From a virus, in IMG/VR virus record IMGVR_UViG_3300025030_000090, positions 4,754 to 68,753 of that record: a DNA stretch of 64,000 nt. One strand, given 5' to 3'. The notes under the pieces were generated by a model that was given only the letters and a program-made list of their open reading frames with translations, was not told where the DNA came from and did no database searches. Of this stretch, positions 14,561 through 47,179 are shown one piece after another (within the stretch, counting starts at the first letter, position 1; each line of letters opens with the position of its first letter). A program made the position numbers and the translations under genes.

Positions 14561-14650
14561 GGCCTCATCTTCATAATATCCACCACCACAGACATACGAT
14601 GCCAGCTATCACCCAAAGGACAACCCAACTAATGAGGAAGGCACGGAACC

Positions 14651-14878: not shown

Positions 14879-14987
14879 ATCATTAAATTTAGTAGGCTGG
14901 CCCAGGATACTCCAACCAAGATGCCCATAGCCAGAGCCATCCCTGTTCCAATCAGGGCAAGCCTGAACATTCTCCGCTCGGTAGGGG

Positions 14988-15503
14988 TCATGGCTTTAGC
15001 ACCATCAGCGCCCTCCATAGGGCCTCAAGTGGATTCTCTAGATTGCAGAACCAGCGCAGCCACCACGATATGTATGACTCACGCAGCCGCCTCATGTGGG
15101 CATCAGTATTGGCGGTGTGCTCCAAGGCAAGAAATAGCTGCTGTTGGTCTGTCTGTGGCAAGTGTCTGACAGTTCCTAGCCACTTCCCCACGTCCAGGGA
15201 GACGGTGTAGCCGAGGCCCTTACACAGGTCACAGGGTATACCCGTTAAGTCTGCCATTTCTTCTTCTGTGTATGGCGCTCCGTAACGAAAAGGGTACACA
15301 ATACCATTTAGGCAGTGTTTGCATTTCTCCCGCACGCCCTGGAGCCAGAAGCCTGACCCACGGCAAGTGGGGCACGGCAATACTCCAGGCGAGATGCTTG
15401 CGATACGGGTTACTATCCCAGGGTCGAAAACTTCTTTCTCTCCCTTGCACGTTGGGCACTTCCTGGTGGCCAGTTCTAACCCAAGGTCAACTGTTTCTGT
15501 CAC
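14988..15503 (-). CDS. DnaJ-like CxxCxGxG zinc-finger protein
   Basis: four CxxCxG repeats. Confidence 0.65.
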   Translation of the reverse strand: MTETVDLGLELATRKCPTCKGEKEVFDPGIVTRIASISPGVLPCPTCRGSGFWLQGVREKCKHCLNGIVYPFRYGAPYTEEEMADLTGIPCDLCKGLGYTVSLDVGKWLGTVRHLPQTDQQQLFLALEHTANTDAHMRRLRESYISWWLRWFCNLENPLEALWRALMVLKP

Positions 15504-15969
15504 ACTCTACCTCCTTCTCCAAATACTTGTTCAGGTCTTTAAGGCTTTCTGCATCACAATCATTGTCACACAGGCAAGCCCGCAGAACGTTGTATAGTAT
15601 GCCCCAACTCCGTGCTAACCGTAGGTGTCCTACTATGGTTAGAGTCTTTGCTTCTTTCTGGGCCACCTTGATAAGTGCCCCAGTGAGAGCGCCTTCTGGC
15701 AAATTGATGTAATCGCCGCTGCCATCGCCAAGGTCAATTGGGTTGTGGCGCTTCTGGGCCAGTGCCCATCTCACTACTTTCCGCAGCCCGTCGTAGCCTG
15801 GGGCTGGAATGTAGTCAATGCCCCTGCATCTGGAACAATAAATAGTATGTGTATCTTGACAATGGGCACAGAATAACTCTCTCCGCCCGGTAGAGAGACA
15901 AGGGCACCTCACCATCAGCTTCTCCAGCAATCCTCTAGTCTCCCGAAGCAAGGGAATCAGGTCACTCAT
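15487..15969 (-). CDS. Cys-rich hypothetical protein
   Basis: CPC, CAHC, CSRCRG. Confidence 0.55.
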   Translation of the reverse strand: MSDLIPLLRETRGLLEKLMVRCPCLSTGRRELFCAHCQDTHTIYCSRCRGIDYIPAPGYDGLRKVVRWALAQKRHNPIDLGDGSGDYINLPEGALTGALIKVAQKEAKTLTIVGHLRLARSWGILYNVLRACLCDNDCDAESLKDLNKYLEKEVECDRNS

Positions 15970-16118
15970 GGCCTAATCTTCTTCATCGCCGCTTCCAGGA
16001 GCCTGACCAGATGCCGTAATTCCCTCTCCAACCTGGTCGCGGGCTGGTCGTCTCACCCTATCCTCCTTTCACCTATCCGGAAATTCCGGATAACTGGCTC
16101 CCCCACTGTTTTTTCTGA

Positions 16119-31634: not shown

Positions 31635-33872
31635 TTACACATTTAATGCATCATCAAATTCTGGCATAGATTTTATTGGTGGCTTGTTTTCCTTATCAAA
31701 TTCTTGTGCAAGTCGTAAGATTTCGTCTTTAGAAATGTCTCCAAGTTCTCCAGCATCTCTATCAGCCCTATTGTTTACTATTATATATTCTCTAAACTCG
31801 TTAGAATCATATTTAGGGTTTTGGCGAATGAATTTGTGGTAGAATCCATTGCTGAAGCCTGTGTGTTTTTCATGCAGCGATTTTTGAAACAATTCCAAAG
31901 CGCTTTTCTCTTCATTTTCTTCGGAATCATCTTCTTCTATTTCTTCCCAATCTTCTGGTTCTTCATCATATTGAATAGAATCAAGCCATTGGTTAAATGG
32001 AGTGTTGGATTTTACTAAAGAAGCAAACTGCGGAAACTTTGATGTGAAGATTTCTGGAGAGATATAGCTTGAAAGTGCGACAGAACGAGTGTTACCTAGC
32101 TCTTTTGAAACAATGTCCCCTATTTGGAATCTGAATTTTTTGAATTCTTTCTCGTTTGTAGGGGGTGGTAATTGTTGGATCACCTCATGGGCAATTCTCG
32201 TGCCTAGATGTGTGCGAAAATCTTTAGGAGAAAATTTGTGTCCTGAAATTCCACCCAGGTACTTTCTTACTTCATAGTCATTCACTTTGAACAATGGTTT
32301 TTCTTCATTTTTCTTTTTACGTGCAAGCAAAGCAGCTATTTTTGGGTCTTTGATTTGTTTCTGTATATGAACACCCTTTTTGCCGATGAAATCAAATGAA
32401 ATACTATCACCATTTATTTGAACATGTTTTCCTAATAAAGTAGAAACTCCATACGCTTTTACTTTGGCTAGGGTTTCATCATTGCTACCTATTCTAAACC
32501 CTGTTTTTGAGATAATATACAACACTAGCGCTTCTTCTGATTTTGATACATCTTTGGAAATTCTCTGTTCAATACGAGGAAGAACTTGGGCAAAGGCTTT
32601 CACCCTTTTGAATTTTGCGGCTGTATGCTTCTTAGAATGTTCAGCAGAATACAGATATTGCAATCTTCCTTTTGAGTCTTGTCCAATTGCTTGCAATGGG
32701 GAATTTTTGCTTTTTGCTACAAGAACATTCTGCCAGTTTGGGGGAATTCTAGAACCAGAAGGAGAAATATTTTCACCTCTCTTCTTTTGTCGCATTTCGG
32801 GATAACGATCTTGATACGGATTCACATACACAGTTCTTGTTCTTGGGAAGGTTTTTCCTTCTCTATGGACAGTTTCTTGTATTTGTTTGGGAACTAGGTT
32901 TGTATTATTTGCTTTTTTAATTTCACTAGTTTTTACTTCAATGTTTTCTATCCAGTTAGGGGGGACTCTTCTTGTCATGGCTACGTATGTCCCAAGTAAG
33001 TTATTGGTTGGATGTTTAAGCAAAATGATTTGTTCAACACTTAACTTATCGGACCAACCATATGTCATAGAATCAGGCACAAGTTGATTGATATATTGTT
33101 TAGGAACTCTGAATTTAACGATAGTTTTTATCTTAGTATTTACAAAATTGCTTGGTTCTCCTATTGAGGCAAAATTACTTTCTTCAATAAGTCCTCTAGT
33201 TTGTACTGATTCTTTTACATTTCCAGGAGATTCGTGATATAATATTATCCCATTATTAACTTCTGATATACGCCTTAATCGCCCCAAAAATGTTTTTTCA
33301 GCTGCTTCCGGTGTTCTAATATTTTCTGGAAGGCTGTTTATGAAGTTCTGGTCTATTTCATCATCAAATTCTGGTATTTTATAGGTTGTTTTTGAAGGGT
33401 CTTGATTTTTAGATCCCAAAGGTTGTCGGATATTATGTGTAGTAAAATATTTTTGGTGATCTATTACTCGTACTGGGTGTTCTGGAAAGTTATCATGTTT
33501 GTGTTTCCAGGATTCTTTTTTAATTTCTTCATTATTGCGTTGTTGTAAACTTCCAGAGTCTTTCTCCCCGCTATTTTCATCCTCAGCTTTTTCTTCTTCT
33601 CCCTTTTCTCCCATTTTGAATTCTGGTAGTAGTTCTCTGTATCTATCTGTTCCTTCATCATCTTGATCCCATAGTCCTTCTACTCGTATTTGTTGGATAT
33701 TGTCTTCGATAACCTTTTTTGCATCATTGAGTTGCATTTCTTCAGAGACAGAAATTTCGGGTGAAGAAAGTTTCTCATTTATCTCATCATCCATTGCAAT
33801 AAGCTCTTTCAGATATCGTTTTATTGCAATATCAATAGAATGGTAGTTGGCATCAATTTCGGATATAGACAT
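31635..33872 (-). CDS. polyprotein: tag B + putative ART/KptA-like domain + tag A + DNA topoisomerase IB
   Basis: TopIB catalytic set TGFRIG, FIGKKG, KDFRT, LGNT..V...SYI; upstream LYHES..GL..VPPNWI domain. Confidence 0.85.
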   Translation of the reverse strand: MSISEIDANYHSIDIAIKRYLKELIAMDDEINEKLSSPEISVSEEMQLNDAKKVIEDNIQQIRVEGLWDQDDEGTDRYRELLPEFKMGEKGEEEKAEDENSGEKDSGSLQQRNNEEIKKESWKHKHDNFPEHPVRVIDHQKYFTTHNIRQPLGSKNQDPSKTTYKIPEFDDEIDQNFINSLPENIRTPEAAEKTFLGRLRRISEVNNGIILYHESPGNVKESVQTRGLIEESNFASIGEPSNFVNTKIKTIVKFRVPKQYINQLVPDSMTYGWSDKLSVEQIILLKHPTNNLLGTYVAMTRRVPPNWIENIEVKTSEIKKANNTNLVPKQIQETVHREGKTFPRTRTVYVNPYQDRYPEMRQKKRGENISPSGSRIPPNWQNVLVAKSKNSPLQAIGQDSKGRLQYLYSAEHSKKHTAAKFKRVKAFAQVLPRIEQRISKDVSKSEEALVLYIISKTGFRIGSNDETLAKVKAYGVSTLLGKHVQINGDSISFDFIGKKGVHIQKQIKDPKIAALLARKKKNEEKPLFKVNDYEVRKYLGGISGHKFSPKDFRTHLGTRIAHEVIQQLPPPTNEKEFKKFRFQIGDIVSKELGNTRSVALSSYISPEIFTSKFPQFASLVKSNTPFNQWLDSIQYDEEPEDWEEIEEDDSEENEEKSALELFQKSLHEKHTGFSNGFYHKFIRQNPKYDSNEFREYIIVNNRADRDAGELGDISKDEILRLAQEFDKENKPPIKSMPEFDDALNV

Positions 33873-36800
33873 TATTTCTCACCCACAAATAACCCAGGAC
33901 TGCTTGCTCGCAACATTTTCATTTGTGCCATAATATCAAGAAATTTTGCTTGTTCTGTAGGGTTGTCTTCGTACATATATGTATTTACAGTCACATCACC
34001 AGTTCTTGGGGAGCGAGCAATTCTTCCTTGGGCCTGGAGAAGGACACTCGCATCTTGAGGGTTTCCTAAAATATGCAAATGGTCTCCTGTTTGCAAATTG
34101 TAGCCGCTACTAGATTTATTATCTATAAAGATAACCCTCACATCTTTGTTTCTTCTGAATTCTTCTGCTCTTGCAGCCATTTCTTCCCCAGTCATGCTGG
34201 TAGTAGAAGCGGCAAGATTTTTTACTTGACTTTGTTTCAGGCCAAGCTCTTTGATGATGTCATTCACAGAATTTCTTTGAGTCCGACTATCTATAAAAAC
34301 CACATGTTTTTTGTTTGAATCTCTTTGCAAAGCAGTTTTTAGGGCTGTAAGTTTCGAATTGGTAGCGATTGGTCCATCATCAAGATTTTCAGTATGCTCT
34401 TGTTCTATTTCTGTTCTCGCAACTTTAGTAGCATTTTGTCCTAGATTTCTTTCCCAATTTTCAGAACGATGTAGCGGGTGATTAGGATTGCTTCTTACTT
34501 CATTTATGATTTCTTGTCTTCTGGTGGCGATTTTCTCAGCACTTTCTAATTCAATTTCTTTCTGATTTTGGACCTGATAATCTGTTTTTCTAACATTAAC
34601 ATTGTTATGGTTTACTTTCCAAGGAGGGGTAGAAAGTTTATCACCACTAATAAAAGGCCTGATGGTATGAAAGAACATGGAGCTCAATCCCGTGTCTTGC
34701 GCATTTGTCCCGCTGCCAAATCCTGAGTATACTCTTTGGAATGATGCTTTGCTACCAAGAGATTTTGTTTGAGTTGCCCATTTTATCAAATCATGCGCTT
34801 CAAGGGGGATTCTTCTCGCAGGAGTGGCTGTAAGCCCGATTCTATGGTTCACAGGAAGTCGCATTATTCTTTTGCCGTATTCTCCGATGTTTCCTGATTG
34901 TCCTCTTGCTTGAAGCTCTTGTGGCTCATCAACTACAAACCCATGAAATTTTTTGTTCCCCAATTGTTCATTTGTCTGCATCTGGGTGAGCATTTCAGAA
35001 GAACGTGCAGCTTCTCTGTGGGCAATTACATATACAGTTCCTGGTTTGCTATCAAGAAGAATATCATCTACTTTGTCTCTTGCAGTCCCATCTGGGATGT
35101 ATTCTATTTTCAAATTTGTGAACTTTTCTGCCTCTGATTTCCATTGCTCTCCTCTGCCTTTAGGAACAACCACAAGCCCTTTGTAATTAGGATCATCATT
35201 CATTTTATGAGCAAAAAACCCCAAAGCAGTGTTTGTCTTTCCAGCACCCGTGACTCTGGTAATCAACCCACCTCCATTTCCTAGAGGATTTTCTGTTGAA
35301 GGTTTTGTAGTTTCCAGAAGCCAATTTATATCATTTCTTTGTTCAAGACGCCATTTGTATGGTTGAGTTACTCCTGATTCGTCAGTAAATTCTTTCTTCC
35401 ACAAAGGAACGTCAAAATTTGATACAACAAGATTTCCCTTATCATCATATTCTGAACCAGAGGTATCAGTCTTTAGTTTTTCATATTTGTCAGAGATTTC
35501 TTTGTCTTGTTGAGTTTCAGTAATTAATTTTCTAAGAGAATCAAGTCCTACTTTCACAGAAATATTATCTGGGTCAGAGTTGTCTATGGTGTGATGTTTA
35601 TCTGAAAGTTTTAATCTTTCAGCAATTGCTTCTGCATCTTTTTGGTTATTTCCGGCATAAATGTGTATTATGTCATTCTTTGCCGTTTTTAGTTTTTCCA
35701 TTTGGTCGTAAAGTGTAGCAGATGCTTGTAAAGAGCCAATTGCAGCACCTATGTTTCTTTTTTGTTCCAAGAGATTTTTCATTTCCAATGAAGAAATTTT
35801 TATCTTGTCTAGAAGTTCGCCACTTCCTTTTTGTTTTTGGATTTCATTCCATTGATCTTTGAGCATTTTGTGTCTATCAAGGGCTTTTTTTTCAGTTGAT
35901 TGCTGATTTGTAGCATTGAAGTCCCTTAATTGTTCTACTGCTCTGGCATATCCTTCAGTAGATTTTGAATTTTCATGTATTTCATAGGCAACCATAGCCG
36001 TAGCAACTTCAATATTGGAAGCATCAATAAGTCTTTTGACATCTACTGTTTTCCCTAAAAATTGCTGTGCAAGAGAGGCAAGAGCAATAGAAGCTCCGGC
36101 ATTCAAATGGAATTTTAGAGTAGTATCTATTTTCTTGTCATCTCCTATGGCATCCATCAGGCTCTTTTTGTTGTTCCAGTGTTCCGCAGCAACCTCATAA
36201 AGAGCTATAGCAGTATTGTTTCTCAACCACTGGTCATAAGATTGCGTAGTTTTTTCTTCTAATTCCTCTATAGACATATCAGATTCTATAGATACCAGGT
36301 CTTGTCTCAATTGGGCAATAGTAGAAGGGGCAGCATCTACCATAGGAACTTTCTTAATAGCTCCTTTCTTTAATTCTGCTTCTTTTCTTTTGTCCCAATA
36401 TGATTTGACAGAATTGATAGCCTTCTTCAAATCTTCTTCGGATTTCAATTCAAGTTTTTCTATAGGAGCGATTTTTATCTCTGGAGCTTTTTCATCAGGA
36501 TTAGTTGGATTTTCGCCATCTTCAAGGATATTGTCTATTTGTCTGTCCATGTGATTGGCGACAGCACTATCCAATTGATTTTGATTCAAGTCTTTCAGTT
36601 CTTCAATATTCGGCATGGAAAGTTGAACGTCGCCAATTTCTTGAAGATCTTTTGATTCTTCTTGAATTATTTGCTCTGTATTTGCTTCGGAGCCAAGTTG
36701 TGAAAGCCGCTTGCCGATTTTTGCTACTACAAGTTGTCTTTCTCTTTGGACTTTTTCGCCAACTTTTCTATTGGCTGCTACAATTTGTCTTGTGATGGTA

Positions 36801-37351
36801 TCGGTAATTCTTTTTGCTTGCTCTTTGTCTTCTACAATCTTTTCTACGTAGTTCTGAATATCATCTTTTTGTTCTAGAAGCTGCTTTTTATCTACTTTTT
36901 TGATTCCAAGTGCTTCTTTCATTTCTTCTGCAGCTTTTCTGACTTCTACTCTGGACTCTTCTTCTAGTTCTTTTTTGGCTACAATGATAGGTTCATTATA
37001 TTTTTCAGCTTCTTTTGCTGTTTCTTCTAGTTCTACATCTCGCTCTGTTTTCTTTGGAGCACCGCCAAGAACTTGATGCCGACGAGCTTCAACCTCGGGA
37101 TCGAAATGTTGCCCGCCCCCAACTATAGCTAGGAGGTTGTCAGGCCTCTTTTGAATTAAAAGTTTTCTGTGGTGGAGCGGCGACTCAGGATCAGATACTG
37201 TAATCCAAGCTGAATCACCGACAGCAAGCGATTCGGCGTCAAACTTCCCGTCCTTCATAGGTGTGGGAACTGTAGCCTTGTTAAAAGATACAAATTCTTT
37301 AGAATGCTTTTTGCTGCCTAACATTTTCAATAGTTCTAAAAGCTTACTCAT
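33872..37351 (-). CDS. large coiled-coil protein with SF2 (SNF2-like) helicase/ATPase
   Basis: VTGAGKT, VVDEPQE, LTATP, SSGYNLQ, QAQGRIAR. Confidence 0.8.
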   Translation of the reverse strand: MSKLLELLKMLGSKKHSKEFVSFNKATVPTPMKDGKFDAESLAVGDSAWITVSDPESPLHHRKLLIQKRPDNLLAIVGGGQHFDPEVEARRHQVLGGAPKKTERDVELEETAKEAEKYNEPIIVAKKELEEESRVEVRKAAEEMKEALGIKKVDKKQLLEQKDDIQNYVEKIVEDKEQAKRITDTITRQIVAANRKVGEKVQRERQLVVAKIGKRLSQLGSEANTEQIIQEESKDLQEIGDVQLSMPNIEELKDLNQNQLDSAVANHMDRQIDNILEDGENPTNPDEKAPEIKIAPIEKLELKSEEDLKKAINSVKSYWDKRKEAELKKGAIKKVPMVDAAPSTIAQLRQDLVSIESDMSIEELEEKTTQSYDQWLRNNTAIALYEVAAEHWNNKKSLMDAIGDDKKIDTTLKFHLNAGASIALASLAQQFLGKTVDVKRLIDASNIEVATAMVAYEIHENSKSTEGYARAVEQLRDFNATNQQSTEKKALDRHKMLKDQWNEIQKQKGSGELLDKIKISSLEMKNLLEQKRNIGAAIGSLQASATLYDQMEKLKTAKNDIIHIYAGNNQKDAEAIAERLKLSDKHHTIDNSDPDNISVKVGLDSLRKLITETQQDKEISDKYEKLKTDTSGSEYDDKGNLVVSNFDVPLWKKEFTDESGVTQPYKWRLEQRNDINWLLETTKPSTENPLGNGGGLITRVTGAGKTNTALGFFAHKMNDDPNYKGLVVVPKGRGEQWKSEAEKFTNLKIEYIPDGTARDKVDDILLDSKPGTVYVIAHREAARSSEMLTQMQTNEQLGNKKFHGFVVDEPQELQARGQSGNIGEYGKRIMRLPVNHRIGLTATPARRIPLEAHDLIKWATQTKSLGSKASFQRVYSGFGSGTNAQDTGLSSMFFHTIRPFISGDKLSTPPWKVNHNNVNVRKTDYQVQNQKEIELESAEKIATRRQEIINEVRSNPNHPLHRSENWERNLGQNATKVARTEIEQEHTENLDDGPIATNSKLTALKTALQRDSNKKHVVFIDSRTQRNSVNDIIKELGLKQSQVKNLAASTTSMTGEEMAARAEEFRRNKDVRVIFIDNKSSSGYNLQTGDHLHILGNPQDASVLLQAQGRIARSPRTGDVTVNTYMYEDNPTEQAKFLDIMAQMKMLRASSPGLFVGEK

Positions 37352-37818
37352 TAGCGAAATCCGATATCATTTTTCGTATTAGCTCTTCGTTTTTCAAATC
37401 ATGTTCCCAAATAATCAGAGTCCCATATCCACTTTGTTTGAATAAAGAAATTCTTTCCAGGTCTTGATTGATTTCGTCTGCTGATTTCGGAAAACAAGTT
37501 TTGCAATTGTGGAAGTAACAACCATTGAATTCAATTAGTTTCTTCTCACTTTCATTCAAAAAGTCAGGATTCTTTCTATGAATCCAAAACGATCCATCAC
37601 CTACATATTTCCATCCCGAAGTAGAATTCTTAATGATTTCTAACAACTTAATTTCTGCGGAATTTGGATGTATAGAAGCGTTTTTGAGAGCTTTCTCGCA
37701 GCGTATATTTCTTTCTGAATCGCTCAATCTATCCCAACTCTTTTATTTTTCGTTTAGATCTTGGAAATATCGTTTCTCCACACCCACAAGCACAATATTT
37801 TATTTCCATGTTACTCAT
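37344..37818 (-). pseudogene. degenerate Vsr/DUF559-type homing endonuclease
   Basis: PDF..IEFNGCYFH..C..C, LIIWEHDL at 37344-37727; N-terminal CACGCG part (ATG 37818) is out of frame. Confidence 0.65.
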
Positions 37819-37885
37819 ATTCAAATCCTAGGAACCCAATTGTCTGGTTCGGGAAGTTTTGGGTCTTGAAAAAAATTCTTTTAGT

Positions 37886-38185
37886 TTATTCATCCTCTAT
37901 TTTCTCTGGATAATCTGCTTTTACATAAGTTCCATAAAGACAAAAATGAAGATTTTCTACAAGTTCTCTTCCGTCTTTCAAGGAAAGTCTCTTTCCTCTA
38001 GATCCATCTTTTTCTATTTTTACCAGCCCACGTTTTAGCATTTCTTCCAACGTTTCTGTGTATTCACCAACAATAGATATCTTATCTGTTTTGCTATCCC
38101 ACTCTACATTAGCGATTTCGCTATCATGGACATTGTATACTTTGGAAATGATTTTCATTGTTGTACCCTGTATCCTATATTCCAA
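37886..38185 (-). CDS. hypothetical protein overlapping the kinase 3' end (possible inhibitor)
   Basis: likely start MKIISKV overlaps the kinase stop. Confidence 0.55.
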   Translation of the reverse strand: MEYRIQGTTMKIISKVYNVHDSEIANVEWDSKTDKISIVGEYTETLEEMLKRGLVKIEKDGSRGKRLSLKDGRELVENLHFCLYGTYVKADYPEKIEDE

Positions 38186-39426
38186 TTAGGCTGTTGTTGG
38201 AGGAGGATGTCTGCCCGATACCGCATAGCTTCTGCTTGCATGCTGGAGATATAATTTCCTAATTTTTTTGCCATCACATCATCACTAATGTTAGAAATAT
38301 CTGACAATTTCTTTCTCCATTTATCTGGTATGCGTAATTTTCTTGCTCTCGCCTTATCATGTATAATTTGATATGAGGCAGTTACATATGGATATTTTGA
38401 GAAACTTCCCCCATTGTCTATTGCTATTATTCTGCCATTTTTTCCTAACAACCAATTTCCATCATGGCGATCGGGATTGTCTATAAGATAATCAAAAAGG
38501 ATAGTATCTATAAGATCTTCATCAGATAATTTGTTTGCTTTTGATGAACTGCCAATATCAGCATCTACAAATTGTTGTATGCTCCCATGTTTTTCGCCTA
38601 TGCTTCGCATAGATGTTGTAGGAACTATATCTAAATTAAGCATCTCTGACAAAAGAAAAGCAGACACTTCATACTTTGGTTCTCCATAAGCTGATTTGTA
38701 TTTGAAAACAGCTTTTCCATCATCTTCCAATTCAACAATTTCTGGGTTGTTAACACCCTTGCCAATTTTTTGTGATTTGGTTACGTTTCTTAAAAGAATC
38801 TCAACTGGGACATAATGTGTTTTTGGAGATTCTTTTGGTTTTTCTTTTTGGGGTTCTGAAGATGATTGCTGAACTGCATGTGTAGCAAAATATTTTATAT
38901 GGTCTATAACTCTAACTGGATGTTTTGGAAAATTATCATGTTTATGTTTCCAGTTCCCTTTTTCTATCAGAGGATTTTCCCCCACAAGTTCAGAAAGAAC
39001 ATCTCCTTCCAGGAGCATCTCTTCTTCTTCGCTTTTTATCATTCTAGAAAGTTCCCAAAAAGTGGAAATTTTCGCAGGAGTAGAAAAAAGGACTTCTGGT
39101 TTTATTAACCAAATGCTATTTCCATCTGTAATTGCTTTTTTGACTTCTATTCTAATTGTATCACCAGCTTCTGCTTTTATATCTGTAGGAGCAGTATACC
39201 CAGCATTCAAAACATGATGCCCATGAATTGCTCCTGATTGCTGCTTTTGAGAAACAATAGAAGTTTTTCCATCACCTAGTTTTTTAGGTCTTGAAGAAGT
39301 TACCCCAGCTTGTTGTCGAACCATTTCTTTTCTATAAAAGGGTCGTCCCATTTTAGGATGAACTAAAACAAGTTTTTGTGTCAAATTAGGATTAGCTTTT
39401 TTCAGGAATTCTTGAAGTTTGCTCAC
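38155..39426 (-). CDS. tag A + tag B + PI3/PI4-kinase-like (HipA/CtkA superfamily) kinase
   Basis: AVFK, EVSAFLLS..L.L..VP.T, GSIQQFV, FDYLIDNPDRHDGNWL, IAIDNG. Confidence 0.85.
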   Translation of the reverse strand: MSKLQEFLKKANPNLTQKLVLVHPKMGRPFYRKEMVRQQAGVTSSRPKKLGDGKTSIVSQKQQSGAIHGHHVLNAGYTAPTDIKAEAGDTIRIEVKKAITDGNSIWLIKPEVLFSTPAKISTFWELSRMIKSEEEEMLLEGDVLSELVGENPLIEKGNWKHKHDNFPKHPVRVIDHIKYFATHAVQQSSSEPQKEKPKESPKTHYVPVEILLRNVTKSQKIGKGVNNPEIVELEDDGKAVFKYKSAYGEPKYEVSAFLLSEMLNLDIVPTTSMRSIGEKHGSIQQFVDADIGSSSKANKLSDEDLIDTILFDYLIDNPDRHDGNWLLGKNGRIIAIDNGGSFSKYPYVTASYQIIHDKARARKLRIPDKWRKKLSDISNISDDVMAKKLGNYISSMQAEAMRYRADILLQQQPNWNIGYRVQQ

Positions 39427-39686
39427 TATCGCTTCAACCCGATTTTATACACGAATTGCCCATCTGGGAGTTCTTTCTTTTCTAGAATCTGAACATTGAT
39501 TCTTTCATCAATATTGACAGTTCTCCAATTTGAATCTTCTTTAGGGGCTTCTTTTTCGAGATTTTCTGGCTGTGAAATATCTTCCATACTTCTATTGTAA
39601 ACCTTTTCTATAGGGGTGCTATCATTTTTGTTTTCTTTTTGCTCCCATTGTATATCTGTTTCTTCCCAAACGAATCTATTTTTCAT
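39426..39686 (-). CDS. small acidic protein after ART (NxFxWExxDI N-terminus)
   Basis: overlaps the ART stop. Confidence 0.6.
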   Translation of the reverse strand: MKNRFVWEETDIQWEQKENKNDSTPIEKVYNRSMEDISQPENLEKEAPKEDSNWRTVNIDERINVQILEKKELPDGQFVYKIGLKR

Positions 39687-40398
39687 TTATCAAAAGCTCC
39701 AATACTATTTGGTCATTTTCTTTAGATACTTTGAATCTACTATTGCGAGGAAGGAGTATTTCTTCTTCTTTCTGTGAAGATGTTCCAGCTGCAAAATCTA
39801 AAGGAATTACTTTTGTTCCTTTTGGTATTTTTATTAATATCAGTTTTCCAAATTTTTGGGCAATATTTGCATTTGATGTGGTTGATAAAAACCCATTATC
39901 CGTAAAAATCCGTCCTATGTTAGCATCAAGATGTTCATATATTTTTGTGTCACTTCTTATCCCTCTGAACAAAAACATATTTTCTGAAGTTAGAGGGACT
40001 TTTTGGAATGCTTTGTCCATTGTTAAGATTTGTTGTTTTAATTCTTCTTCACTTGTAGGACTTCCAGAGATCAGAATACCATTTCTAAGTAGCAAATTGA
40101 TTGGTCTGCTGCCAAATTCTTTATAATTTTGTAGTACTTGTTTTTCATTTGGGCTCAGTAGTTTTTCTATGTCCTCAAAACCTTTTCTTGGCCGAACCCA
40201 TCTAATAGACCAATATGGCTTTTTCTCCCAAGTGCTGGGAATGATTTGTACTTTTTTGGGTACTAATCCTTCTCTTGCTTTTTCTAGAAAATCTTCAAGT
40301 TTTGAAGAGGGGGTAGTTATATACCTCTTTTGTTCCAAACCCCTCTGTTTTGAAGAAAAAGTGATTTTTTCAGATAGGGATTTTTTGATTTTTAGCAA
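39676..40398 (-). CDS. tag A + VIP2/C3-like (R-S-E) ADP-ribosyltransferase
   Basis: IN.LLR, LFRG, FLSTT, KEEEILLPRNSRF. Confidence 0.88.
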   Translation of the reverse strand: MLKIKKSLSEKITFSSKQRGLEQKRYITTPSSKLEDFLEKAREGLVPKKVQIIPSTWEKKPYWSIRWVRPRKGFEDIEKLLSPNEKQVLQNYKEFGSRPINLLLRNGILISGSPTSEEELKQQILTMDKAFQKVPLTSENMFLFRGIRSDTKIYEHLDANIGRIFTDNGFLSTTSNANIAQKFGKLILIKIPKGTKVIPLDFAAGTSSQKEEEILLPRNSRFKVSKENDQIVLELLINEK

Positions 40399-40423
40399 AG
40401 TATCCGTCCTCTAAAACTTTGAA

Positions 40424-43400
40424 TCAATCGTCCATTTGTACCCATTTTGCAGGCTTTGATTCTTTTGCCATAACAAGAAATTCTCTTTCATTTTCGTTAT
40501 ATGAATGTGCGTAATAGAAAGACCAAATATCTTCCCTTTTTGTTTTTATTTGCAACGTTATATTCCCAAAATTTTTTGCCTTATAATAAGAATGAGACCA
40601 GGAAGATAAAGCATCTTGATTTAGAAGCACTGGGACATAAGAGTGAGTTCCGCTGTACCCAACAAGCTTCGGTTTTCTCTTTACTTCATTAAGACTTGTT
40701 CCTCTATATAAAGTGATGAATTCGTCTTCTTCATTCTTTTTCGGAAATGCTTCTGCCAGAATTCTTTGCGTTAAATCATAATGAATTCTAACATATTCAT
40801 CTATCTCTTTTCCGCCTAGTCTGAATCGCATTTCTTTTACTTGTCCTTCCATCTTATCTGTGAATCTTGGATGGGCATATGTTTGTTTTTGAATTATTCT
40901 AGAAACTGCTTCTTTTATAGTATACGCATCCATAGAAGTAGAAGATACTGCCCAACCCTCTTTCAACGTTTCATGTATGAATTCATATGGCGTCCCTTTA
41001 TAGAGTTCATCTACAATTTGCACCATCGTTTGCGAAGGACCTTTATTAGAAGTTAGTTGTCCGATGTATTCTTTGAATTTGTCAGATAGTTTTTCAGGCA
41101 ATTTCCAGGTTCTATGGAATTCATCTATGAATTTTTCCCCAAGAATATTATCTCTGATTAGGCTTCTAATTTCTATTTTTCCTCGTTCACCTGTGCTCCA
41201 ATTTGAAATATTGTGGTTTTTCATGTGTTTCCCAATAAGTTTTCTGACAAACAAATATTGAGCATCTTCATCGCTTGAATGTTTCTCATAAAATTCTTGA
41301 AAAACATTTCCATTACTTCTTGATACAGAATCAAGAAAAGTTTTAGGAGATACTTCTTTTATGTTTTCTAGTATCTCAAGAGTTATCTCTTTGTTTGGTA
41401 TTCTTTTTGAAACTGTTTCTTTTACGAATATATCTCTATCTTTTGTTAATTTTTTCAGGATTCGTATATTTCTTATTTTACCAGCTACAAGTTCTCTGAT
41501 TCTCGCAGAGCTATCATCTGCTAACATTTCCAGAATAGGTTGTAAATCTCTTTCATAAGCCGCCGAAGCTGCCAAAAAACGTTCTGTTTCATTTGGCGAT
41601 TCTACCCATTTGATAAATGTGTCTATAGCTTTGTGTTCTTCTGGGTTAACATATATAGTTCTAGTTCTTCTGAATGGTGGGCCGTCTTTGGGGTGAACTA
41701 TCTCATGTATCTGTTTAGGAATTTTTCCTCTGGTTTCTCTTTTTTCCAGTTCATTGTCAAAGAACTTTCTAATAACTTCCTCAAAATCACCTAAAAACAA
41801 ATCATCAAGTTCTTCTTCTGAAACCCATTTGTAGCTAGAATGCTCCTTGTTTAACTTGATCTCTCCAGAAATTTCCACTTTGTAGAAAAGAACTGGATGT
41901 TCGTCCTTTCCTATCTCTGTTTCCCCAGAAATGTCAAATTCTTCTATGTCTTCTACTTTGCAGTTTATCTCTTCCTGAAGTTCTCTTCGCAGCGCTTCCT
42001 TTGCGTCCTCTTTTTGGTCGATGTGGCCTCCTGGGAGGTCGTATGGAAATTTAGAATTGGTAGGATTATGAAGTAAAAGCAATCTTCCTTCTTCATCCAG
42101 TATCAATGCTTTTGCAGAAATAGGAAGGTTTGCTTTTTCTATTTTGTCCTTTGTTTCTATCTTTCTTGTTTCGGGATTAAAAGTTGCAGCAGAATCCAGT
42201 TGCCAACCTCCGGAACCATCTGGAACTATAAGATTCTTTGGAATTCTGAAAGAATAAACTTGGCTATCTTCTGGGTAATCTACATCCCTGCCTTGAGCAT
42301 AACTTCTATCAGTAGCAAAGAATTTTCCTTTAGGAATTTCTTCTCCAGAAACCCATTTTTCATATTCTTTAGCACTCATGTCTCTATAAACACGAATAAG
42401 TTTTGGTTCTTTTCCTTGGTGTAGAGAAATAAAACTAGGAAAATATCCCACATTGGATTTCCATTTCGAATAATCTGGTTTCCCATAAAGCATTTCATAT
42501 ATTGTTTTGACTTGTCCAAACATGCTTTCTTGAATGTCTTTTCCATTTTCTTCAGCTTCTTCGAATGAGGACAGGTCATCTCCATCCCAAAAATCTACTT
42601 CCCCGTCATCACCTATAGAAATTTGGGCCGAAGAAGTATATTTGGAATTTGGCATCTTTTGATGAATAACCATTCTGATGTCAAAATTATCTTCCATTTT
42701 ATCATAGTCAGGAAAGTCAGAATACATAGGCGGAAGAAGTTCAATCTTCGTCATCAAAAAATCTTCCATTCTGTGAATGTGGGCTTTTAGTTTTTCGAAT
42801 GTTTCTTTTCCGAATTGGTGAAAAAGAACATAATCAATAGCATTTTGTCTGTCTTCTTTTTCCCAAAACTCCCCTATGTCTTTGTTCTTTCTATAGCTGG
42901 CCCAGTCGTTGGTATCATGTCTTTCCATCCCTAGAGAGAACCAGACTTGTCCAGGGGAATAATTTGTAATTGGCTTTCCAAAAATTAGAGTTTCTTCCCA
43001 TTCTGGTTTGTTTTCTATATGGGATTCTTCCGCTTCTTCTTTTGCTTCTTCAGGAGAAACCCATCGAATACCCCAAAATGTTTTTCCTTGCTGATGGATC
43101 TGCACCTTTTTAGGAATAAGGTTTGGATTTGAATCAGATTTTTGAATTTCTTCTTTCTCTTGTATTGCTTTTTCGGGGTGGAAAACTACAAATTCAGCAC
43201 CTCTTTGTATTCCGAATTGTGTTTTTCTGGGTTCATTTGTTAGAATAATTCCATCATATCCTTGATTCTCTAGCTTCTGTCTTATAAGCTTGCTTTTTTG
43301 CTCTAATTTTTCGGTCAAAGAACCTTTGAAATTCGCCAAATCTTTGGAAACTAGCTCATCTATATCTCCAGGAGTTCTTGGGACATAGGGTTTTTGCAGA

Positions 43401-45505
43401 TGCAAATGATGCTGTTGGACATCACCATATCCTTCAGCAATTTGCTTATGGGAAGAAAAATAAGTTCCTTTTCCCCACATTCCTTCATCTACAGGTGTAT
43501 GTTTTCCAGTTCCTCTCCATACAATGCCTTGAAATGGTTTTCCATGTTCGATTCCCTTTGCTTCATGAACATCTACATTATAGGGATTGTCTTGCTTCGG
43601 GAGATTGGAAAAATATTCTTGATGGTGTTCTACGGCAACAGGGTGTTCTTGCCAGCCATCATGCTGATGATATGCAACCCTAGCCTTCTCAAAATCATCC
43701 CCGAAGTATTCTTCTGCTTCTTTCTTTGTAGGTGGCCCTTCAGACCATTTTTTAGAAGCAAGGCCATACTTTAGTTCTCTTTCGGAAACAATGTCATCAT
43801 CAGCTTCTTTTTCTTTTCTAAAGGCATTTCCGTGGGGAGTACAAAAATGGGCTGTGGCCATCGCTTCGGCCCAAAGAAATTCTACTGTGGGTGACATGCT
43901 GCATTTCATGCATTTGCTTCTGCTGTAGGCTTTTGTTAAATCTGACTTTGAAAGATACTCAGAATAGTTATCTTTTACATATTGCAATGCTTGGTCTGGA
44001 GTAGAAAATTCTCCTTCCTCTTGCTTTTCTCTAATCTCTTTTATGACTTTGCCCATCATTTTGCTCGGAGGAAGTCCTATAGAAATAAGATCGTCACCTG
44101 TAACAAGCGGAGGAATTTTGCCTTCAGAAGTCATTACTCCAATCTTGCCTTTAACTTCTTGAAGCTTATCTCTAAACCATGAGCTTTCATTTCTTGAAGC
44201 AGGTTCTGGCTCCCCATCTTCTTTTCGATGTAATCTTCCAGTAGTATCTGCTTCAGAAAAGTCAGCAAGAAGGTTGAGTTTGTCTATTCCATGTTTGTTG
44301 ATTAGTCTTTTGAAGGCAGATTCTGGAACTTTTTGTCTCCAAAAGGCAGTCGGAATGCCATGATTTGCTACTAGGAAAAGAACCCTTTCAACTATTTCTT
44401 CATTATTTGTAAGTCTTGATAGGAATTTTTTAGTTGGATCTATTCCTAATTCTTCATGACCATGTTGAGTGATTTTTCCATCTTCTTCTTTTGTAGCATC
44501 AGGTTTTCCGAAATCGTGTGCAATAGAAGCAAGCATTAAAGCAAGCTTGTCTTTCTCATTATCATATTTTTTGATGATTTCAGCAGACTTGTCCATAACC
44601 ATACGAATATGGTTGTATACAGAACCTTCAAAATGAAAGTCTCCCCGTTGTTTTGTAGTTTTCAGCACGAAAATTTCTGGCCAATATCTCTTCAGCACAT
44701 CCATATCATCAAGAGCTTCTAATCCAATAGACGGCTTTTTTGAACGAAGAAGAAGCTTTTTGAATTCCTCAAAGATTCTTTCAGACGGAAGATGTGACAA
44801 ATCTATTGTAGAAGCTAAATCTACTGTTTCTGGAGCAATAGAAAAACCAAAGCGGGCAGCAAATTGTGCTGCACAATACACCCTCAGTGAATCTTCCTGA
44901 AATGTTTTATCATTTACGTGACGAATAACACCATTTTTTAGATCTTTTATCCCGCCAAAATGATCCAGGATCTTCTTTTTTTCTAGATCGTAATAAATTG
45001 AGTTTATGGAAAAATCACGTCTTTTTGCAGCCGTTTCTGTGTCCAAATAAGGATCTGACTCTACTTCGAAATCGGTGTGTTTCTCCCCTATCTTCTTTTC
45101 TTTTCGAGGCAAGGAAATATCAAAATCGGTTCCTATTTTGAATACACCAAATTGCTTTCCTACTTGTTCACTTTTTCCACCCAGTTCTTCTACTATTTCT
45201 CCAAGTCTTTCTTTTGGAATATCATAAACTTCGATATCAAAATCTTTTACTGCTTTTCCTAGAAGAGCATCCCGCACACTACCACCGACAAGATATGGTG
45301 TTCCATATTTTGTAAGTGTGGATGTTATTCTTTCAAAATCTGGATGTTGAAAAAATAAGGGAGAGGTTTCTTCTTCTGAAGAGACCATGATAACACGATC
45401 TCTCTCAAAAGTAGTTCCTCCTCTGTGAACTACCTCATGTATTTTCTTGGGAACTAAATTGGGGTTAGTCATCTTCTTGTGAAAAATTTCCCTTGTATAA
45501 GACAA
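40424..45505 (-). CDS. polyprotein: CCA-adding/HD tRNA nucleotidyltransferase, two ART-like domains, NUDIX hydrolase and C-terminal R-S-E ART, separated by tags
   Basis: LVGGSVRD/DFDIE/RRDFSIN/EDSLR, IAHDFGK; VWRGTG..GTYFS..YDGI; GGHIDQKEDAKEALRRELQEE; LYRG/LSSWS/NEREFLV; true start likely ATG 45472. Confidence 0.88.
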   Translation of the reverse strand: MSYTREIFHKKMTNPNLVPKKIHEVVHRGGTTFERDRVIMVSSEEETSPLFFQHPDFERITSTLTKYGTPYLVGGSVRDALLGKAVKDFDIEVYDIPKERLGEIVEELGGKSEQVGKQFGVFKIGTDFDISLPRKEKKIGEKHTDFEVESDPYLDTETAAKRRDFSINSIYYDLEKKKILDHFGGIKDLKNGVIRHVNDKTFQEDSLRVYCAAQFAARFGFSIAPETVDLASTIDLSHLPSERIFEEFKKLLLRSKKPSIGLEALDDMDVLKRYWPEIFVLKTTKQRGDFHFEGSVYNHIRMVMDKSAEIIKKYDNEKDKLALMLASIAHDFGKPDATKEEDGKITQHGHEELGIDPTKKFLSRLTNNEEIVERVLFLVANHGIPTAFWRQKVPESAFKRLINKHGIDKLNLLADFSEADTTGRLHRKEDGEPEPASRNESSWFRDKLQEVKGKIGVMTSEGKIPPLVTGDDLISIGLPPSKMMGKVIKEIREKQEEGEFSTPDQALQYVKDNYSEYLSKSDLTKAYSRSKCMKCSMSPTVEFLWAEAMATAHFCTPHGNAFRKEKEADDDIVSERELKYGLASKKWSEGPPTKKEAEEYFGDDFEKARVAYHQHDGWQEHPVAVEHHQEYFSNLPKQDNPYNVDVHEAKGIEHGKPFQGIVWRGTGKHTPVDEGMWGKGTYFSSHKQIAEGYGDVQQHHLHLQKPYVPRTPGDIDELVSKDLANFKGSLTEKLEQKSKLIRQKLENQGYDGIILTNEPRKTQFGIQRGAEFVVFHPEKAIQEKEEIQKSDSNPNLIPKKVQIHQQGKTFWGIRWVSPEEAKEEAEESHIENKPEWEETLIFGKPITNYSPGQVWFSLGMERHDTNDWASYRKNKDIGEFWEKEDRQNAIDYVLFHQFGKETFEKLKAHIHRMEDFLMTKIELLPPMYSDFPDYDKMEDNFDIRMVIHQKMPNSKYTSSAQISIGDDGEVDFWDGDDLSSFEEAEENGKDIQESMFGQVKTIYEMLYGKPDYSKWKSNVGYFPSFISLHQGKEPKLIRVYRDMSAKEYEKWVSGEEIPKGKFFATDRSYAQGRDVDYPEDSQVYSFRIPKNLIVPDGSGGWQLDSAATFNPETRKIETKDKIEKANLPISAKALILDEEGRLLLLHNPTNSKFPYDLPGGHIDQKEDAKEALRRELQEEINCKVEDIEEFDISGETEIGKDEHPVLFYKVEISGEIKLNKEHSSYKWVSEEELDDLFLGDFEEVIRKFFDNELEKRETRGKIPKQIHEIVHPKDGPPFRRTRTIYVNPEEHKAIDTFIKWVESPNETERFLAASAAYERDLQPILEMLADDSSARIRELVAGKIRNIRILKKLTKDRDIFVKETVSKRIPNKEITLEILENIKEVSPKTFLDSVSRSNGNVFQEFYEKHSSDEDAQYLFVRKLIGKHMKNHNISNWSTGERGKIEIRSLIRDNILGEKFIDEFHRTWKLPEKLSDKFKEYIGQLTSNKGPSQTMVQIVDELYKGTPYEFIHETLKEGWAVSSTSMDAYTIKEAVSRIIQKQTYAHPRFTDKMEGQVKEMRFRLGGKEIDEYVRIHYDLTQRILAEAFPKKNEEDEFITLYRGTSLNEVKRKPKLVGYSGTHSYVPVLLNQDALSSWSHSYYKAKNFGNITLQIKTKREDIWSFYYAHSYNENEREFLVMAKESKPAKWVQMDD

Positions 45506-45884
45506 TCATATCATTATCAGGAAACTTCTCACAAACAAAATCAGGATAACTTTTTTTTATATCTTCTATTGTTTGGTTTTCTTTCAATGGGAAAATATGG
45601 GCAACAAATTGTTTTGCTATTCTACAACTATCTCTGATGATTTTCTCTTGGTTGTCCATATTTCGAAGAACATTGTACGAAAACACAGAATCAAATTCAT
45701 CATCCTCATACGGAAGCTTGTTTCCTAATTCTATATCACAAATAGAAGAAGTAGATTTTTGAAGCACTTCCAATGAGTCTGATTGTTTTATTTCTAAAAT
45801 AGAGCTTCCTGGAATAGAAAGAAGAAATTTTTCTAATCCGCCTAAAAAATAAATATCCTCTTTCTCCCAAGCAAATTTATTCAT
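45465..45884 (-). CDS. NxFxWExxDI peptide fused to a degenerate class I SAM methyltransferase fold
   Basis: SILEI (no GxG), LPYEDDEFDSVFS..VL. Confidence 0.6.
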   Translation of the reverse strand: MNKFAWEKEDIYFLGGLEKFLLSIPGSSILEIKQSDSLEVLQKSTSSICDIELGNKLPYEDDEFDSVFSYNVLRNMDNQEKIIRDSCRIAKQFVAHIFPLKENQTIEDIKKSYPDFVCEKFPDNDMIVLYKGNFSQEDD

Positions 45885-46584
45885 TCATTATCCCTGTCCA
45901 CTGATATACAGGCACCCCATTTTGATCTGCTACCCACTTAAAAATCGAATTTCTTGGTATGATCACCTCTTCTTCGTCTGATTCGGTTACAGTATCAGGT
46001 ACATGAAGTGCTGAGGCTCCTTTTGGTATTTTTATTGCAATAGTTTTATAATCGTCAAATTCCAATTCCTGTATCCGACTATTTAGGGATGTAGAAACAA
46101 ATCCTCTGTCTACAAAAGTTCCTTTTGGAAAGCTAACATTTATAGCTCTAAAGCATGTGATACTGAATGGTAGAATACTTTTTGAAATTGCTTTGTCCAT
46201 CACATCAATTTTGTACGCCAATGATCCTATTGTATATGGTGCGGCAGTTAATTTTATATTTTTGTTTCTCAAAGATCTATTTATTTCTTTATACCCGTTT
46301 ATCTGATAGTCATTAATAACAACCTTTTCTTTTTCAAGCAAAGCATTATATGCAATTATCAATTCTTTTTCAATTTGCTTTCTTGTAGATCTTGAATATG
46401 GTAAGGAAAATTTTTCTTTTTCTTCTGGGTTCACCATCACAGTTCTTTCACGAGGAAATACTTTTCCTCCACGATGTACTTCTTCGTGAATCTTTTTGGG
46501 AATGAGATTAGATTTGTTTAATTCCAGAAATTCTTGTAATTTTCCCAATTGGAAATTATCCCCAAATTGTTTTTTGCCAGTCAC
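45877..46584 (-). CDS. tag A + VIP2-like (R-S-E) ADP-ribosyltransferase
   Basis: Y..IN.SLR, CFRA, FVSTS, DEEEVIIPRNS. Confidence 0.86.
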   Translation of the reverse strand: MTGKKQFGDNFQLGKLQEFLELNKSNLIPKKIHEEVHRGGKVFPRERTVMVNPEEKEKFSLPYSRSTRKQIEKELIIAYNALLEKEKVVINDYQINGYKEINRSLRNKNIKLTAAPYTIGSLAYKIDVMDKAISKSILPFSITCFRAINVSFPKGTFVDRGFVSTSLNSRIQELEFDDYKTIAIKIPKGASALHVPDTVTESDEEEVIIPRNSIFKWVADQNGVPVYQWTGIMNE

Positions 46585-47179
46585 TCTCTACAATTTGGTC
46601 TACAATACCATAATCTACTGCTTCTTTCGGAGAAAGCCAAAATTCTCTATCAATGTCTTTGTCAAGCTGTTTTCTATCTCTAGTGATCCCATTATTCATC
46701 AAAATGCCTATATATCTTTCCTCAAGGCGCTCTATTTCTTTTTGCTGTTTCTTGAGCTCTTTTACATCACCTTCTGTTCCGCCAGAGATTAAATGCATCA
46801 TCACCCTGCCATTCGGAATGATAAATCTCTTTCCTTTTTGTCCTGCTGATAGAATGGCCACAGCAGCAGAGCAAGCAAAAAGCCCAACAGTATAAACAGG
46901 AGAGCGAAGCATCTTTATGGTATCGTGGAGAGCAAAGCAGTCATCTAGCTCTCCCCCACCACTGTCTATTATAAGAGTAATAGGCTCATCAGAAATAGTG
47001 TCCAAAGCAAGCATATGGTCTCTGGCAACCCAACTTGCAAACTGATCTTGTCGCATAGGGAAGCCCGTCATTACAGAGTAAAAGAAAATAGTTCTTTTTT
47101 GTTCCAAGAAATATTCATAAATAGAAGCATAGTACTTGTTGTCTTGAGTTCCCTTTGGCCGCTGAATCATCTTCATCAT
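46556..47179 (-). CDS. clpP: ClpP-family protease subunit
   Basis: IDSGGG, ACSAA (Ser), MMH (His), DREFWLSPKEAVDYGIVDQI. Confidence 0.9.
   Translation of the reverse strand: MMKMIQRPKGTQDNKYYASIYEYFLEQKRTIFFYSVMTGFPMRQDQFASWVARDHMLALDTISDEPITLIIDSGGGELDDCFALHDTIKMLRSPVYTVGLFACSAAVAILSAGQKGKRFIIPNGRVMMHLISGGTEGDVKELKKQQKEIERLEERYIGILMNNGITRDRKQLDKDIDREFWLSPKEAVDYGIVDQIVESDWQKTIWG

Follow-up and report, generated by a model that had tools for sequence, protein, structure and literature searches.

An N-terminal peptide shared by the products of genes following two ADP-ribosyltransferases

The DNA analysed here (the window; 64,000 nt, most of the 68.7-kb IMG/VR virus record IMGVR_UViG_3300025030_000090, record positions 4,754 to 68,753) encodes two ADP-ribosyltransferases (ARTs) of the Alt/VIP2 type, each followed by an overlapping open reading frame (ORF) whose product opens with the same peptide of about 13 residues. 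The peptide recurs beside ARTs of other phages, and two of its properties appear to be new: it is a conserved, recognisable element apparently specific to the Alt/VIP2 ARTs of phage effector arrays, and it is used either in the chain of the ART or at the N-terminus of unrelated proteins, where it straddles a gene boundary. No description of the motif was found in the literature, the supplements and authors' ftp files of which may hold motif-level annotations. The chances seem to us even that the peptide is a portable active-site plug, which would keep head-packaged ARTs silent until maturation or ejection. The genes and peptides concerned are:

39676..40398, minus strand: ART2, a 240-aa Alt/VIP2-type ADP-ribosyltransferase (PF03496 at 1.8e-22; R145 / S172 / E211-x-E213 signature)
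45877..46584, minus strand: ART1, a 235-aa Alt/VIP2-type ADP-ribosyltransferase (PF03496 at 3.2e-19; R / STS / ExE signature intact)
39426..39686, minus strand: 86-aa ORF after ART2, starting MKNRFVWEETDIQW and overlapping the ART2 stop by 11 nt (ATGAAAAATAG)
45465..45884, minus strand: 139-aa ORF after ART1, starting MNKFAWEKEDIYF and overlapping the ART1 stop by 8 nt (ATGAATAA)
39645..39680, minus strand: first copy of the peptide, N3-R-F-V-W-E-E-T-D-I-Q-W14 of the 86-aa ORF (matrix score 16.5 bits)
45846..45881, minus strand: second copy of the peptide, N2-K-F-A-W-E-K-E-D-I-Y-F13 of the 139-aa ORF (matrix score 13.2 bits)

Both window ARTs are assigned by their sequences to the R-S-ExE clade of PF03496, scoring 80 bits (ART2) and 69.5 bits (ART1) against a curated cut-off of 23.4, and they are 30% identical to each other. 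A profile search of the PDB returns Vip2, CdtA, iota Ia and C3. When eight motif-linked ARTs were aligned, Y92, N101, R105, R145, S172, E211 and E213 were invariant. ART2 ends with ...LLINEK-TAG and ART1 with ...GIMNE-TAA, and the N-terminal parts of both carry a module motif described below (LVPKKVQI..WSIRWVRP in ART2, LIPKKIHEEVHRGGKVFPRERTVMV in ART1). A solved stand-alone ART near this family is Lmo0066 (PDB 8za7 chain B, 180 aa; 2.3e-28), which is chain B of a multi-chain entry and may be in complex with a partner.

The two downstream ORFs are preceded by Shine-Dalgarno-like sequences: GGAG lies 9 nt upstream of the ATG of the 86-aa ORF, and AGGGA lies upstream of the start of the 139-aa ORF. 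Together with the overlaps of 11 and 8 nt this is the downstream, translationally coupled arrangement of toxin/immunity pairs, and it is found likewise in three further phages treated below (L081, L085 and G001). The preliminary description of this DNA had reported both ART/ORF pairs, and their coordinates and sequences were confirmed when the sequence was read again, as were the overlapping gene and shared N-terminal motif behind each VIP2-like ART and the unrelatedness of the remaining parts of the two proteins.

Both downstream ORFs open with N[RK]F[VA]WExxDIx[WF], and a BLASTP alignment of the two is limited to residues 3-14 of the shorter and 2-13 of the longer protein. Two in-frame stops stand directly before each start methionine, so that the peptide must be N-terminal. 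The pattern N.F.WE..DI occurs at just these two sites and matches nowhere else in the 68.7-kb record or in any of the window's six frames. A cross-validated scoring matrix, built solely from 19 instances in unrelated database proteins, gave 16.5 and 13.2 bits for the two window copies and 0.5 for the next best among the window's minus-strand ORFs of 60 aa or longer, 111 in all. The shared N-terminus is real and far beyond chance.

Outside the peptide the two proteins have little in common with known families. The 86-aa ORF is an orphan which matches no Pfam or PHROGs family and is predicted to be disordered (mean pLDDT, the predicted local distance difference test, of 0.34 in its Atlas model). 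No relatives were found in viral contigs, and the Atlas gave no usable match; a search of 5.8 billion proteins, 47-151 aa in length, returned a single match, a copy that is 99% identical. The 139-aa ORF carries beyond the peptide a remnant of a class-I methyltransferase (PF08241 at 2.7e-5, covering residues 55-91 only), in which the GxGxG motif for S-adenosylmethionine is replaced by KQSDS, and this domain is, to judge from these residues, decayed. An intact counterpart of the methyltransferase (VLELGCGNG...) was seen inside a 1243-aa polyvalent protein of phage L001 (L001 3760-7491), where it is fused to a prohead-protease-like region; intein/HNH-like insertions are apparent in both this ORF and the adjacent 653-aa ORF.

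The consensus of the peptide over all carriers is [ND]-[KR]-F-[VTA]-W-x-x-x-D-[IVL]-x-[FWL], about 13 residues, which probably fold as a beta-hairpin. The codons of the two window copies differ synonymously, and the peptide is conserved across phages of 36% GC and of high GC content, which argues that selection acts on the peptide and not on the DNA. Between distant phages it is also better conserved than the ARTs, whose identity is about 30%. IEKV, LEKE and LEKF all occur after the window peptides, as the preliminary description had pointed out under the name of a K junction. [LI]EK occurs 27 times in 17,976 aa, against 19.8 expected, or about 0.05 times per 37-residue stretch, and its presence near the peptide is suggestive of a candidate junction.

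Linkage of the peptide to ARTs in other phages

A first comparison is offered by L081, a metagenomic relative with an ART at 44% identity. The peptide comes after each of its two PF03496 ARTs in overlapping ORFs, one starting MNRFVLNLEDIEL (95 aa, no family) and the other MNKFIWKEPDIKW (580 aa, topoisomerase IB with a zincin-like end). This phage was assembled three times (L081, L082 and L083), with an identical layout in all three independent assemblies, and it shares with the window the SNF2, ART, topoisomerase IB, MuF-like and metallophosphatase genes as well as the same module motif. The downstream bodies of L081 are unrelated to those of the window; thus, the peptide goes with the ART and not with the downstream protein.

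A strict DNA pattern (M-N-[KR]-F-x-W-x3-D-I) had five matches in IMG/VR, one of which is a genuine ORF start. It belongs to L085, where an 802-aa MuF-pyrophosphatase-ART fusion is followed, with an overlap of 8 nt, by an ORF starting MNKFLWKEKDIKIL and encoding a 1244-aa zincin and SNF2 protein. The ART of L085 scores 21.8 bits with PF03496, just below the cut-off, and 3.2e-17 with the profile of the eight ARTs.

In G001, a complete high-GC phage of 117.7 kb, the peptide follows all four PF03496 ARTs (a to d). Two of them (a and b) are fused forms, with the peptide in the same polypeptide after a linker containing QLDLPF (...NEKFTWDESGIV... and ...DNKYVWQGHELVF...), and in the two split forms (c and d) it opens the next, ATGA-overlapped ORF (MINDKFTWQDGDVEF... 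and MNRFVWEGDDIIL...). A delimiter, KYNxxHDxxGxF, stands 3-10 residues after each peptide. About 9 of the 13 KYNxxH delimiters of G001 follow other domains, and none of these has the peptide, which suggests that it is ART-specific and not a general boundary signal. A 280-aa ORF of the same phage (L074 4030-4872) looks like a divergent ART missed by PF03496 (LVYRG ... IASTV ... NEIVLP); the ORF after it is small and membrane-like (MNLDTFWWGWAF...) and is not the peptide.

ART2 has 1780 relatives among 1.84 billion representative proteins, and the best 150 of these, most of them giant proteins in which the ART is repeated up to nine times, were surveyed for the motif. A regular expression for it matched 19 times in 190,014 aa, and 14 of the matches lay within 110 aa after the end of an ART. 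This gives a density of 0.365 per 1000 aa in these stretches versus 0.033 elsewhere, an approximately 11-fold enrichment. Three of the other five matches fall within residues 1-71 of proteins that contain an ART. The motif follows six of six ARTs in one database protein, P0009, and the fused order ART-linker-peptide is seen in G001 a and b, P0009, P0035, P0057, P0073 and P0136. At a threshold of 12 bits the position matrix found 19 matches near and 5 away from ARTs, a comparison that is partly circular, the seeds being from the same set. The matrix built from database proteins only scored 16.0 and 15.0 in L081, 28.9 and 13.4 in G001, and 7.1 in L085. By these counts the motif is linked to ARTs across independent phages, and the neighbourhood survey proposed in the preliminary description thus bore out its expectation of a linkage outside the window (L081, L085, G001 and the database relatives).

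Other searches returned less. The strict pattern had 32 matches in prokaryotic genome contigs, about the chance expectation, with no ART in the 1.5 kb upstream of any of them; three of them were inspected and discarded as internal methionines of unrelated genes. A first DNA pattern matched 60 viral stretches, mostly out of frame or by chance, and the relevant one was L015, from phage G001. The alignment of eight ARTs was too diverse for a locus scan, and a narrower alignment (A2) was used instead, which found nothing in viral contigs and three loci of a single phage in metagenome contigs. In Bacteroidota genome contigs (L090, L098, L099, L100, L106, L116) there is a protein family of about 165 aa whose members start with MNKF[KV]WG..D[IM] and have no ART upstream; it appears to be unrelated, its first residues being alike by chance or convergence.

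A tree of 397 ART domains, made with FastTree, requires 17 changes of the motif state, against 25.2 (minimum 22) in 200 shuffles. The motif-linked ARTs are thus weakly clustered, mostly as repeats within one protein, and this scattered pattern implies an element that is either old and often lost, or mobile; a single origin would be too strong a claim from so short and divergent a domain.

Structural models of the peptide and ART2

A complex of ART2 residues 60-240 (35 alignment rows) and residues 1-36 of the 86-aa ORF (6 rows) was modelled with ESMFold2. The interface score ipSAE was 0.65 (0.59, 0.67 and 0.65 in the runs), against 0.00, 0.01 and 0.00 for three controls; the runs share at least 70% of contacts, and the pLDDT of the partner is at least 54. 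In calibration 58 of 80 solved complexes attained this mark, as did 2 of 110 mismatched pairs, figures that are only roughly valid here because custom alignments were used.

On the side of the peptide the modelled interface comprises exactly residues 3-15. On the side of ART2 it comprises residues 92-93, 97-98, 101, 105-106, 145-148, 151-153, 156, 160, 163-169, 171-172, 183, 213 and 221, and so takes in the invariant Y92, N101, R105, R145, S172 and E213. The modelled peptide pairs with the strand preceding the STS motif and fills the catalytic cleft, with D11, the near-invariant aspartate of the motif, adjoining N101, R105 and residues 167-169. As modelled, then, the peptide binds in the catalytic cleft of ART2.

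Possible function of the peptide

The mechanism that we favour may be outlined as follows. The peptide would be made 1:1 with each Alt/VIP2-type ART, either from the next ORF, by stop/start-coupled translation (the window, L081, L085 and G001 c and d) or in the ART's own chain after a linker (G001 a and b, P0009 and others). It would insert into the catalytic cleft that binds nicotinamide adenine dinucleotide (NAD+), and would so keep the ART inactive inside the producing cell during its loading, with other effector modules, into the head. Separation from the partner, by cleavage with a head protease in the maturing head or by unfolding upon ejection, would then release the enzyme. Inhibition of the ART by the peptide is suggested by the modelled position, and both routes of release are proposals; as context, the gene next to ART1 is that of a ClpP-family protease, and the peptide has module delimiters or [LI]EK behind it. 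A wider claim, that this hairpin of about 13 residues is a universal transferable zymogen lock for the head-packaged Alt/VIP2 ARTs of very different phages, placed in the own chain or at the N-terminus of a neighbouring cargo and released by maturation or ejection, is offered tentatively and may well go too far.

The preliminary description had regarded the overlapping genes as encoding short cognate antitoxins. The ART-linked motif, the stop/start overlap as in toxin/immunity pairs and the modelled placement in the cleft agree with this, but a dedicated antitoxin gene is not what was found: the conserved part is an N-terminal tag, about 13 residues long, carried by whichever protein comes next. 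Neither do the carriers form a dedicated co-occurring partner family, their bodies being an orphan, a decayed methyltransferase, a topoisomerase IB and an SNF2 protein.

Several results weigh against the proposed plug. One match of the ART profile, at 2.8e-13, is Tre1 (6drh_B), the structure of which has been solved together with Tri1, and part of the score of the complex may therefore reflect this likeness; the alignment of the peptide itself had no match among PDB chains at E up to 10. For two natural fused forms, AlphaFold2 models gave a pLDDT above 90 for the ARTs and below 50 for the peptide, with no confident docking. In one, G001-b (273 aa, 39 rows; ART-linker-peptide-delimiter), a hairpin is formed by residues 229-232 and 235-238 at a pLDDT of about 42; in the other, P0057 (416 aa, 42 rows; ART-peptide-ART), residues 170-195 are unstructured. 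These models are weak negative evidence, because the alignments are few rows deep over the peptide and the measure is a pLDDT without contacts. Complex prediction, one of the checks named in the preliminary description, thus gave a divided answer: the motif was placed in the ART2 cleft with a score far above the best control, but the two fused forms did not dock. Furthermore, the ART columns of the modelled interface do not separate the motif-linked ARTs (4 in the top 25; p = 0.55), which is compatible with a plug on universally conserved catalytic residues and lends it no independent support.

The extent of the linkage weighs on the same side. Of the 333 ART domains followed by 25 residues or more, the regular expression found the motif on 14, a count from which degenerate variants such as ADKFSYDTGDLVY are missing. 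In phage G002 neither of the two ART-downstream ORFs has the motif (scores -2.6 and -5.5); their starts, MDRF... and MKNKF..., are similar by eye and were rejected as members at these scores. Four phages, cultured or annotated (Microdon, Orisa03, Trixie and MW202455), drawn from the 34 INPHARED records that hold an ART2 relative, were inspected, and none has the motif downstream of its ART. Most such ARTs would thus manage without the peptide. In P0085, P0139, P0150 and G001-d, moreover, the peptide is N-terminal to an ART, and which ART it would serve is ambiguous in tandem arrays. A position of the peptide near the N-terminus of the protein, before the ART, was observed in P0085 (453 aa), P0150, P0139 and P0115, and in P0085 the repeat unit peptide-HHGIKESLEE-ART is present twice.

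Another explanation could be that the peptide is a module boundary that does not bind the ART, such as a processing site, a head-targeting signal or a recombination joint, and moves in a cassette with the ART and its 3' flank. The peptide stands 3-25 residues before a delimiter (KYNxxHDxxGxF or DFDESKHPRNP) in G001, P0003, P0026, P0035 and P0073, [LI]EK comes after it in three of five low-GC cases, the motif-linked ARTs are scattered over the tree, and the lack of docking in the fused-form models would follow. However, delimiters behind non-ART domains have no peptide, the model of the complex is specific with respect to three controls, and the conservation of the peptide exceeds that of the ARTs; we consider this explanation rather unlikely, though it has to be taken seriously.

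It might also be that the peptide binds the ART without silencing it, either as a docking tag which tethers the next cargo for joint loading into the head, or as a chaperone that folds or holds the cleft. The model of the complex shows only the position of the peptide; the tagged ORFs of the window are without the L[VI]PKK module motif that the ARTs have, and could thus ride along; and the tagged proteins are highly diverse cargo. Yet the modelled site is the catalytic cleft (R145, S172, E213), occupancy of which would block NAD+ whatever the purpose, and the tagged proteins of G001 and L081 have module motifs of their own and need no ride. Binding without silencing is accordingly an explanation to which we give little credence.

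The remaining two explanations are very improbable. A programmed frameshift or a sequencing error could join the ART and the next ORF, so that the peptide would form the C-terminus of the ART, on the pattern of the fused forms that occur elsewhere; the next ORF is in +1 at both window junctions, and an A-rich run (GAAAAATAG) is present at one of them. The six junctions nevertheless differ in frame (+1, +1; -1, +1; -1, -1) with no shared slippery site, each ORF has its own ATG right after in-frame stops with GGAG or AGGGA upstream, and the layout is repeated in the three independent L081 assemblies; a programmed frameshift was rejected on account of the inconsistent frames. That the peptide is a functionless relic of an old duplication of an ART with its flank, as the two paralogous ARTs at 30% identity might suggest, hardly agrees with its retention across very different base compositions, on unrelated proteins and amid surroundings diverged beyond recognition.

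To our knowledge, little has been established about how toxic head-packed phage enzymes are silenced during assembly, and ARTs are the commonest class of packaged modifying enzyme. A portable plug, if true, would be a simple answer to how such enzymes stay harmless while the phage is assembled, would explain the small or odd ORFs behind these ARTs, and would be a naturally occurring peptide ligand for the conserved catalytic cleft of R-S-ExE ARTs. Since the modelled contacts are clade-conserved (Y92, N101, R105, R145, S172, E213), the peptide could serve as a generic natural inhibitor scaffold for this class of enzymes. The motif is also a sequence marker for annotating ART/partner pairs in metagenomes, and it indicates that in polyvalent effector arrays a functional unit can straddle a gene boundary.

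Comparison with known systems

One close parallel is Tre1-Tri1 of the type VI secretion system (T6SS) of Serratia proteamaculans, in which, according to the portion of the source available, an N-terminal extension of Tri1 obstructs Tre1's active site (PMC8120803). Tre1 is an R-S-E ART homologous to the window ARTs (by the PDB match given above) and is likewise neutralised by the product of a cognate gene, and an N-terminal extension in the ART active site is what our model predicts here. Tri1, however, has a DraG-like hydrolase domain, which the window ORFs lack in Pfam and PHROGs searches (the 139-aa ORF matches methyltransferase models only). The tag described here is found on unrelated proteins or in the polypeptide of the ART, has no sequence likeness to PDB chains, and is set in a phage head-gene cluster instead of a T6SS. 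By sequence, the window element is not a member of the Tri1 family.

In pierisin-1 and the mosquitocidal toxin MTX, a linker C-terminal to the ART domain is described in the same source, as far as it was available, as inhibitory until proteolysis (PMC8120803). The order ART-linker-peptide of the fused forms listed above (G001, P0009, P0035, P0057, P0073 and P0136) resembles this arrangement. These toxins belong to a separate ART clade (enterotoxin-A/pierisin), though, the window peptide is encoded by a separate coupled ORF and not in the same chain as the ART, and docking within one polypeptide was not reproduced by AlphaFold2.

MuF polymorphic toxins of temperate phages are head-associated, 14% of them being ARTs, and are described in the accessible part of one study as having an ORF of less than 150 aa downstream, with a proposed immunity function (Jamet et al. 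2017, PMC5576092); small ORFs come after 89.4% of the genes for MuF toxins (191 in number) in that account (PMC5576092). L085, with its MuF-...-ART fusion and the tagged ORF behind it, is alike in organisation. The immunity ORFs of MuF toxins are defined by size only, with no shared motif described in that part of the study, whereas here the conserved unit is about 13 residues and its carrier may be as long as 1244 aa.

Finally, polyvalent proteins and head-packaged Alt/VIP2 ARTs are reported, in the sections consulted, to be multi-domain effectors encoded beside head genes, presumably injected along with the DNA (Iyer et al. 2017, 2022; PMC5512222, PMC9503650), with ART, Nudix, SNF2, kinase and peptidase among the modules named there (PMC5512222, PMC9503650). 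A 1693-aa protein of the window has PF18760 (ART-PolyVal), and T4 Alt is counted with these systems. In the same sections, no peptide following an ART and no inhibitor is mentioned.

Genomic context

The virus record has an estimated completeness of 78%, and all long ORFs of the window are on the minus strand. The region from 31.6 to 50 kb consists of effector-type genes, densely packed and frequently overlapping. Pfam matches in this run include topoisomerase IB, a ResIII/SNF2 helicase, a kinase-like protein and the two PF03496 ARTs, as well as the 1693-aa polyvalent protein, a ClpP-family protease and a metallophosphatase. With multiple effector domains per protein or on adjacent coupled ORFs, beside a ClpP gene, these matches describe a phage polyvalent effector array. 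The gene set agrees with what has been published on polyvalent effectors and Alt/VIP2 ARTs packaged in the head, as far as the sections consulted present it, and these particular ARTs and proteins may be packaged there as well. The genes that adjoin the two ART/ORF pairs are:

40424..45505, minus strand: giant polyvalent effector of 1693 aa (Pfam: CCA/poly(A)-polymerase head with HD, ART-PolyVal and Nudix domains)
38155..39426, minus strand: 423-aa kinase-like protein (PF00454 at 2.2e-6), the GTG start of which overlaps the stop of the 86-aa ORF
46556..47179, minus strand: ClpP-family protease gene (PF00574 at 7.9e-39), directly upstream of ART1 and overlapping the ART1 start

The ClpP-family protease is a candidate head-maturation protease. 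The 1693-aa ORF is listed with a TTG start at 45505, but an ATG at 45472 overlaps the stop of the 139-aa ORF (ATGACTAA) and gives MTNPNLVPKKIH; this ATG is likely to be the true start and would put the module motif right at the N-terminus. Given the coupled starts at this ATG and at the GTG of the 423-aa ORF, the whole row reads like one polyvalent protein split into coupled ORFs. The C-terminal part of the 1693-aa ORF, of about 150 residues (40424-40900, minus strand), is ART-like by eye (LYRG ... SSWSHS ... ENEREFLV) and has no Pfam match. The peptide is present neither after this C-terminus nor after the PF18760 ART-PolyVal domain of the same protein (residues 678-778).

Most effector modules of the window (31635-46584, minus strand) open with a module motif of about 25 residues, L[VI]PKK[VI]x[VI]..G..F..R.V, often preceded by xLxxFLEK. 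It is found at residue 326 of a 745-aa ORF, residue 45 of ART2, residues 17 and 796 of the 1693-aa ORF and residue 27 of ART1, and by eye also at the N-terminus of the 423-aa ORF and at about residue 1285 of the 1693-aa ORF. Analogous motifs take the same position in G001 (KYNxxHDxxGxF) and G002 (KHLxGQHDQSxHGxWA), and in database proteins (DFDESKHPRNP, GTSxGAxKAW and GSGNxGHxGRPG). Such motifs may be head-targeting or processing signals. Elsewhere in the window, the GC content rises to 0.51 at positions 14001-16000, compared with about 0.36-0.40 on both flanks.

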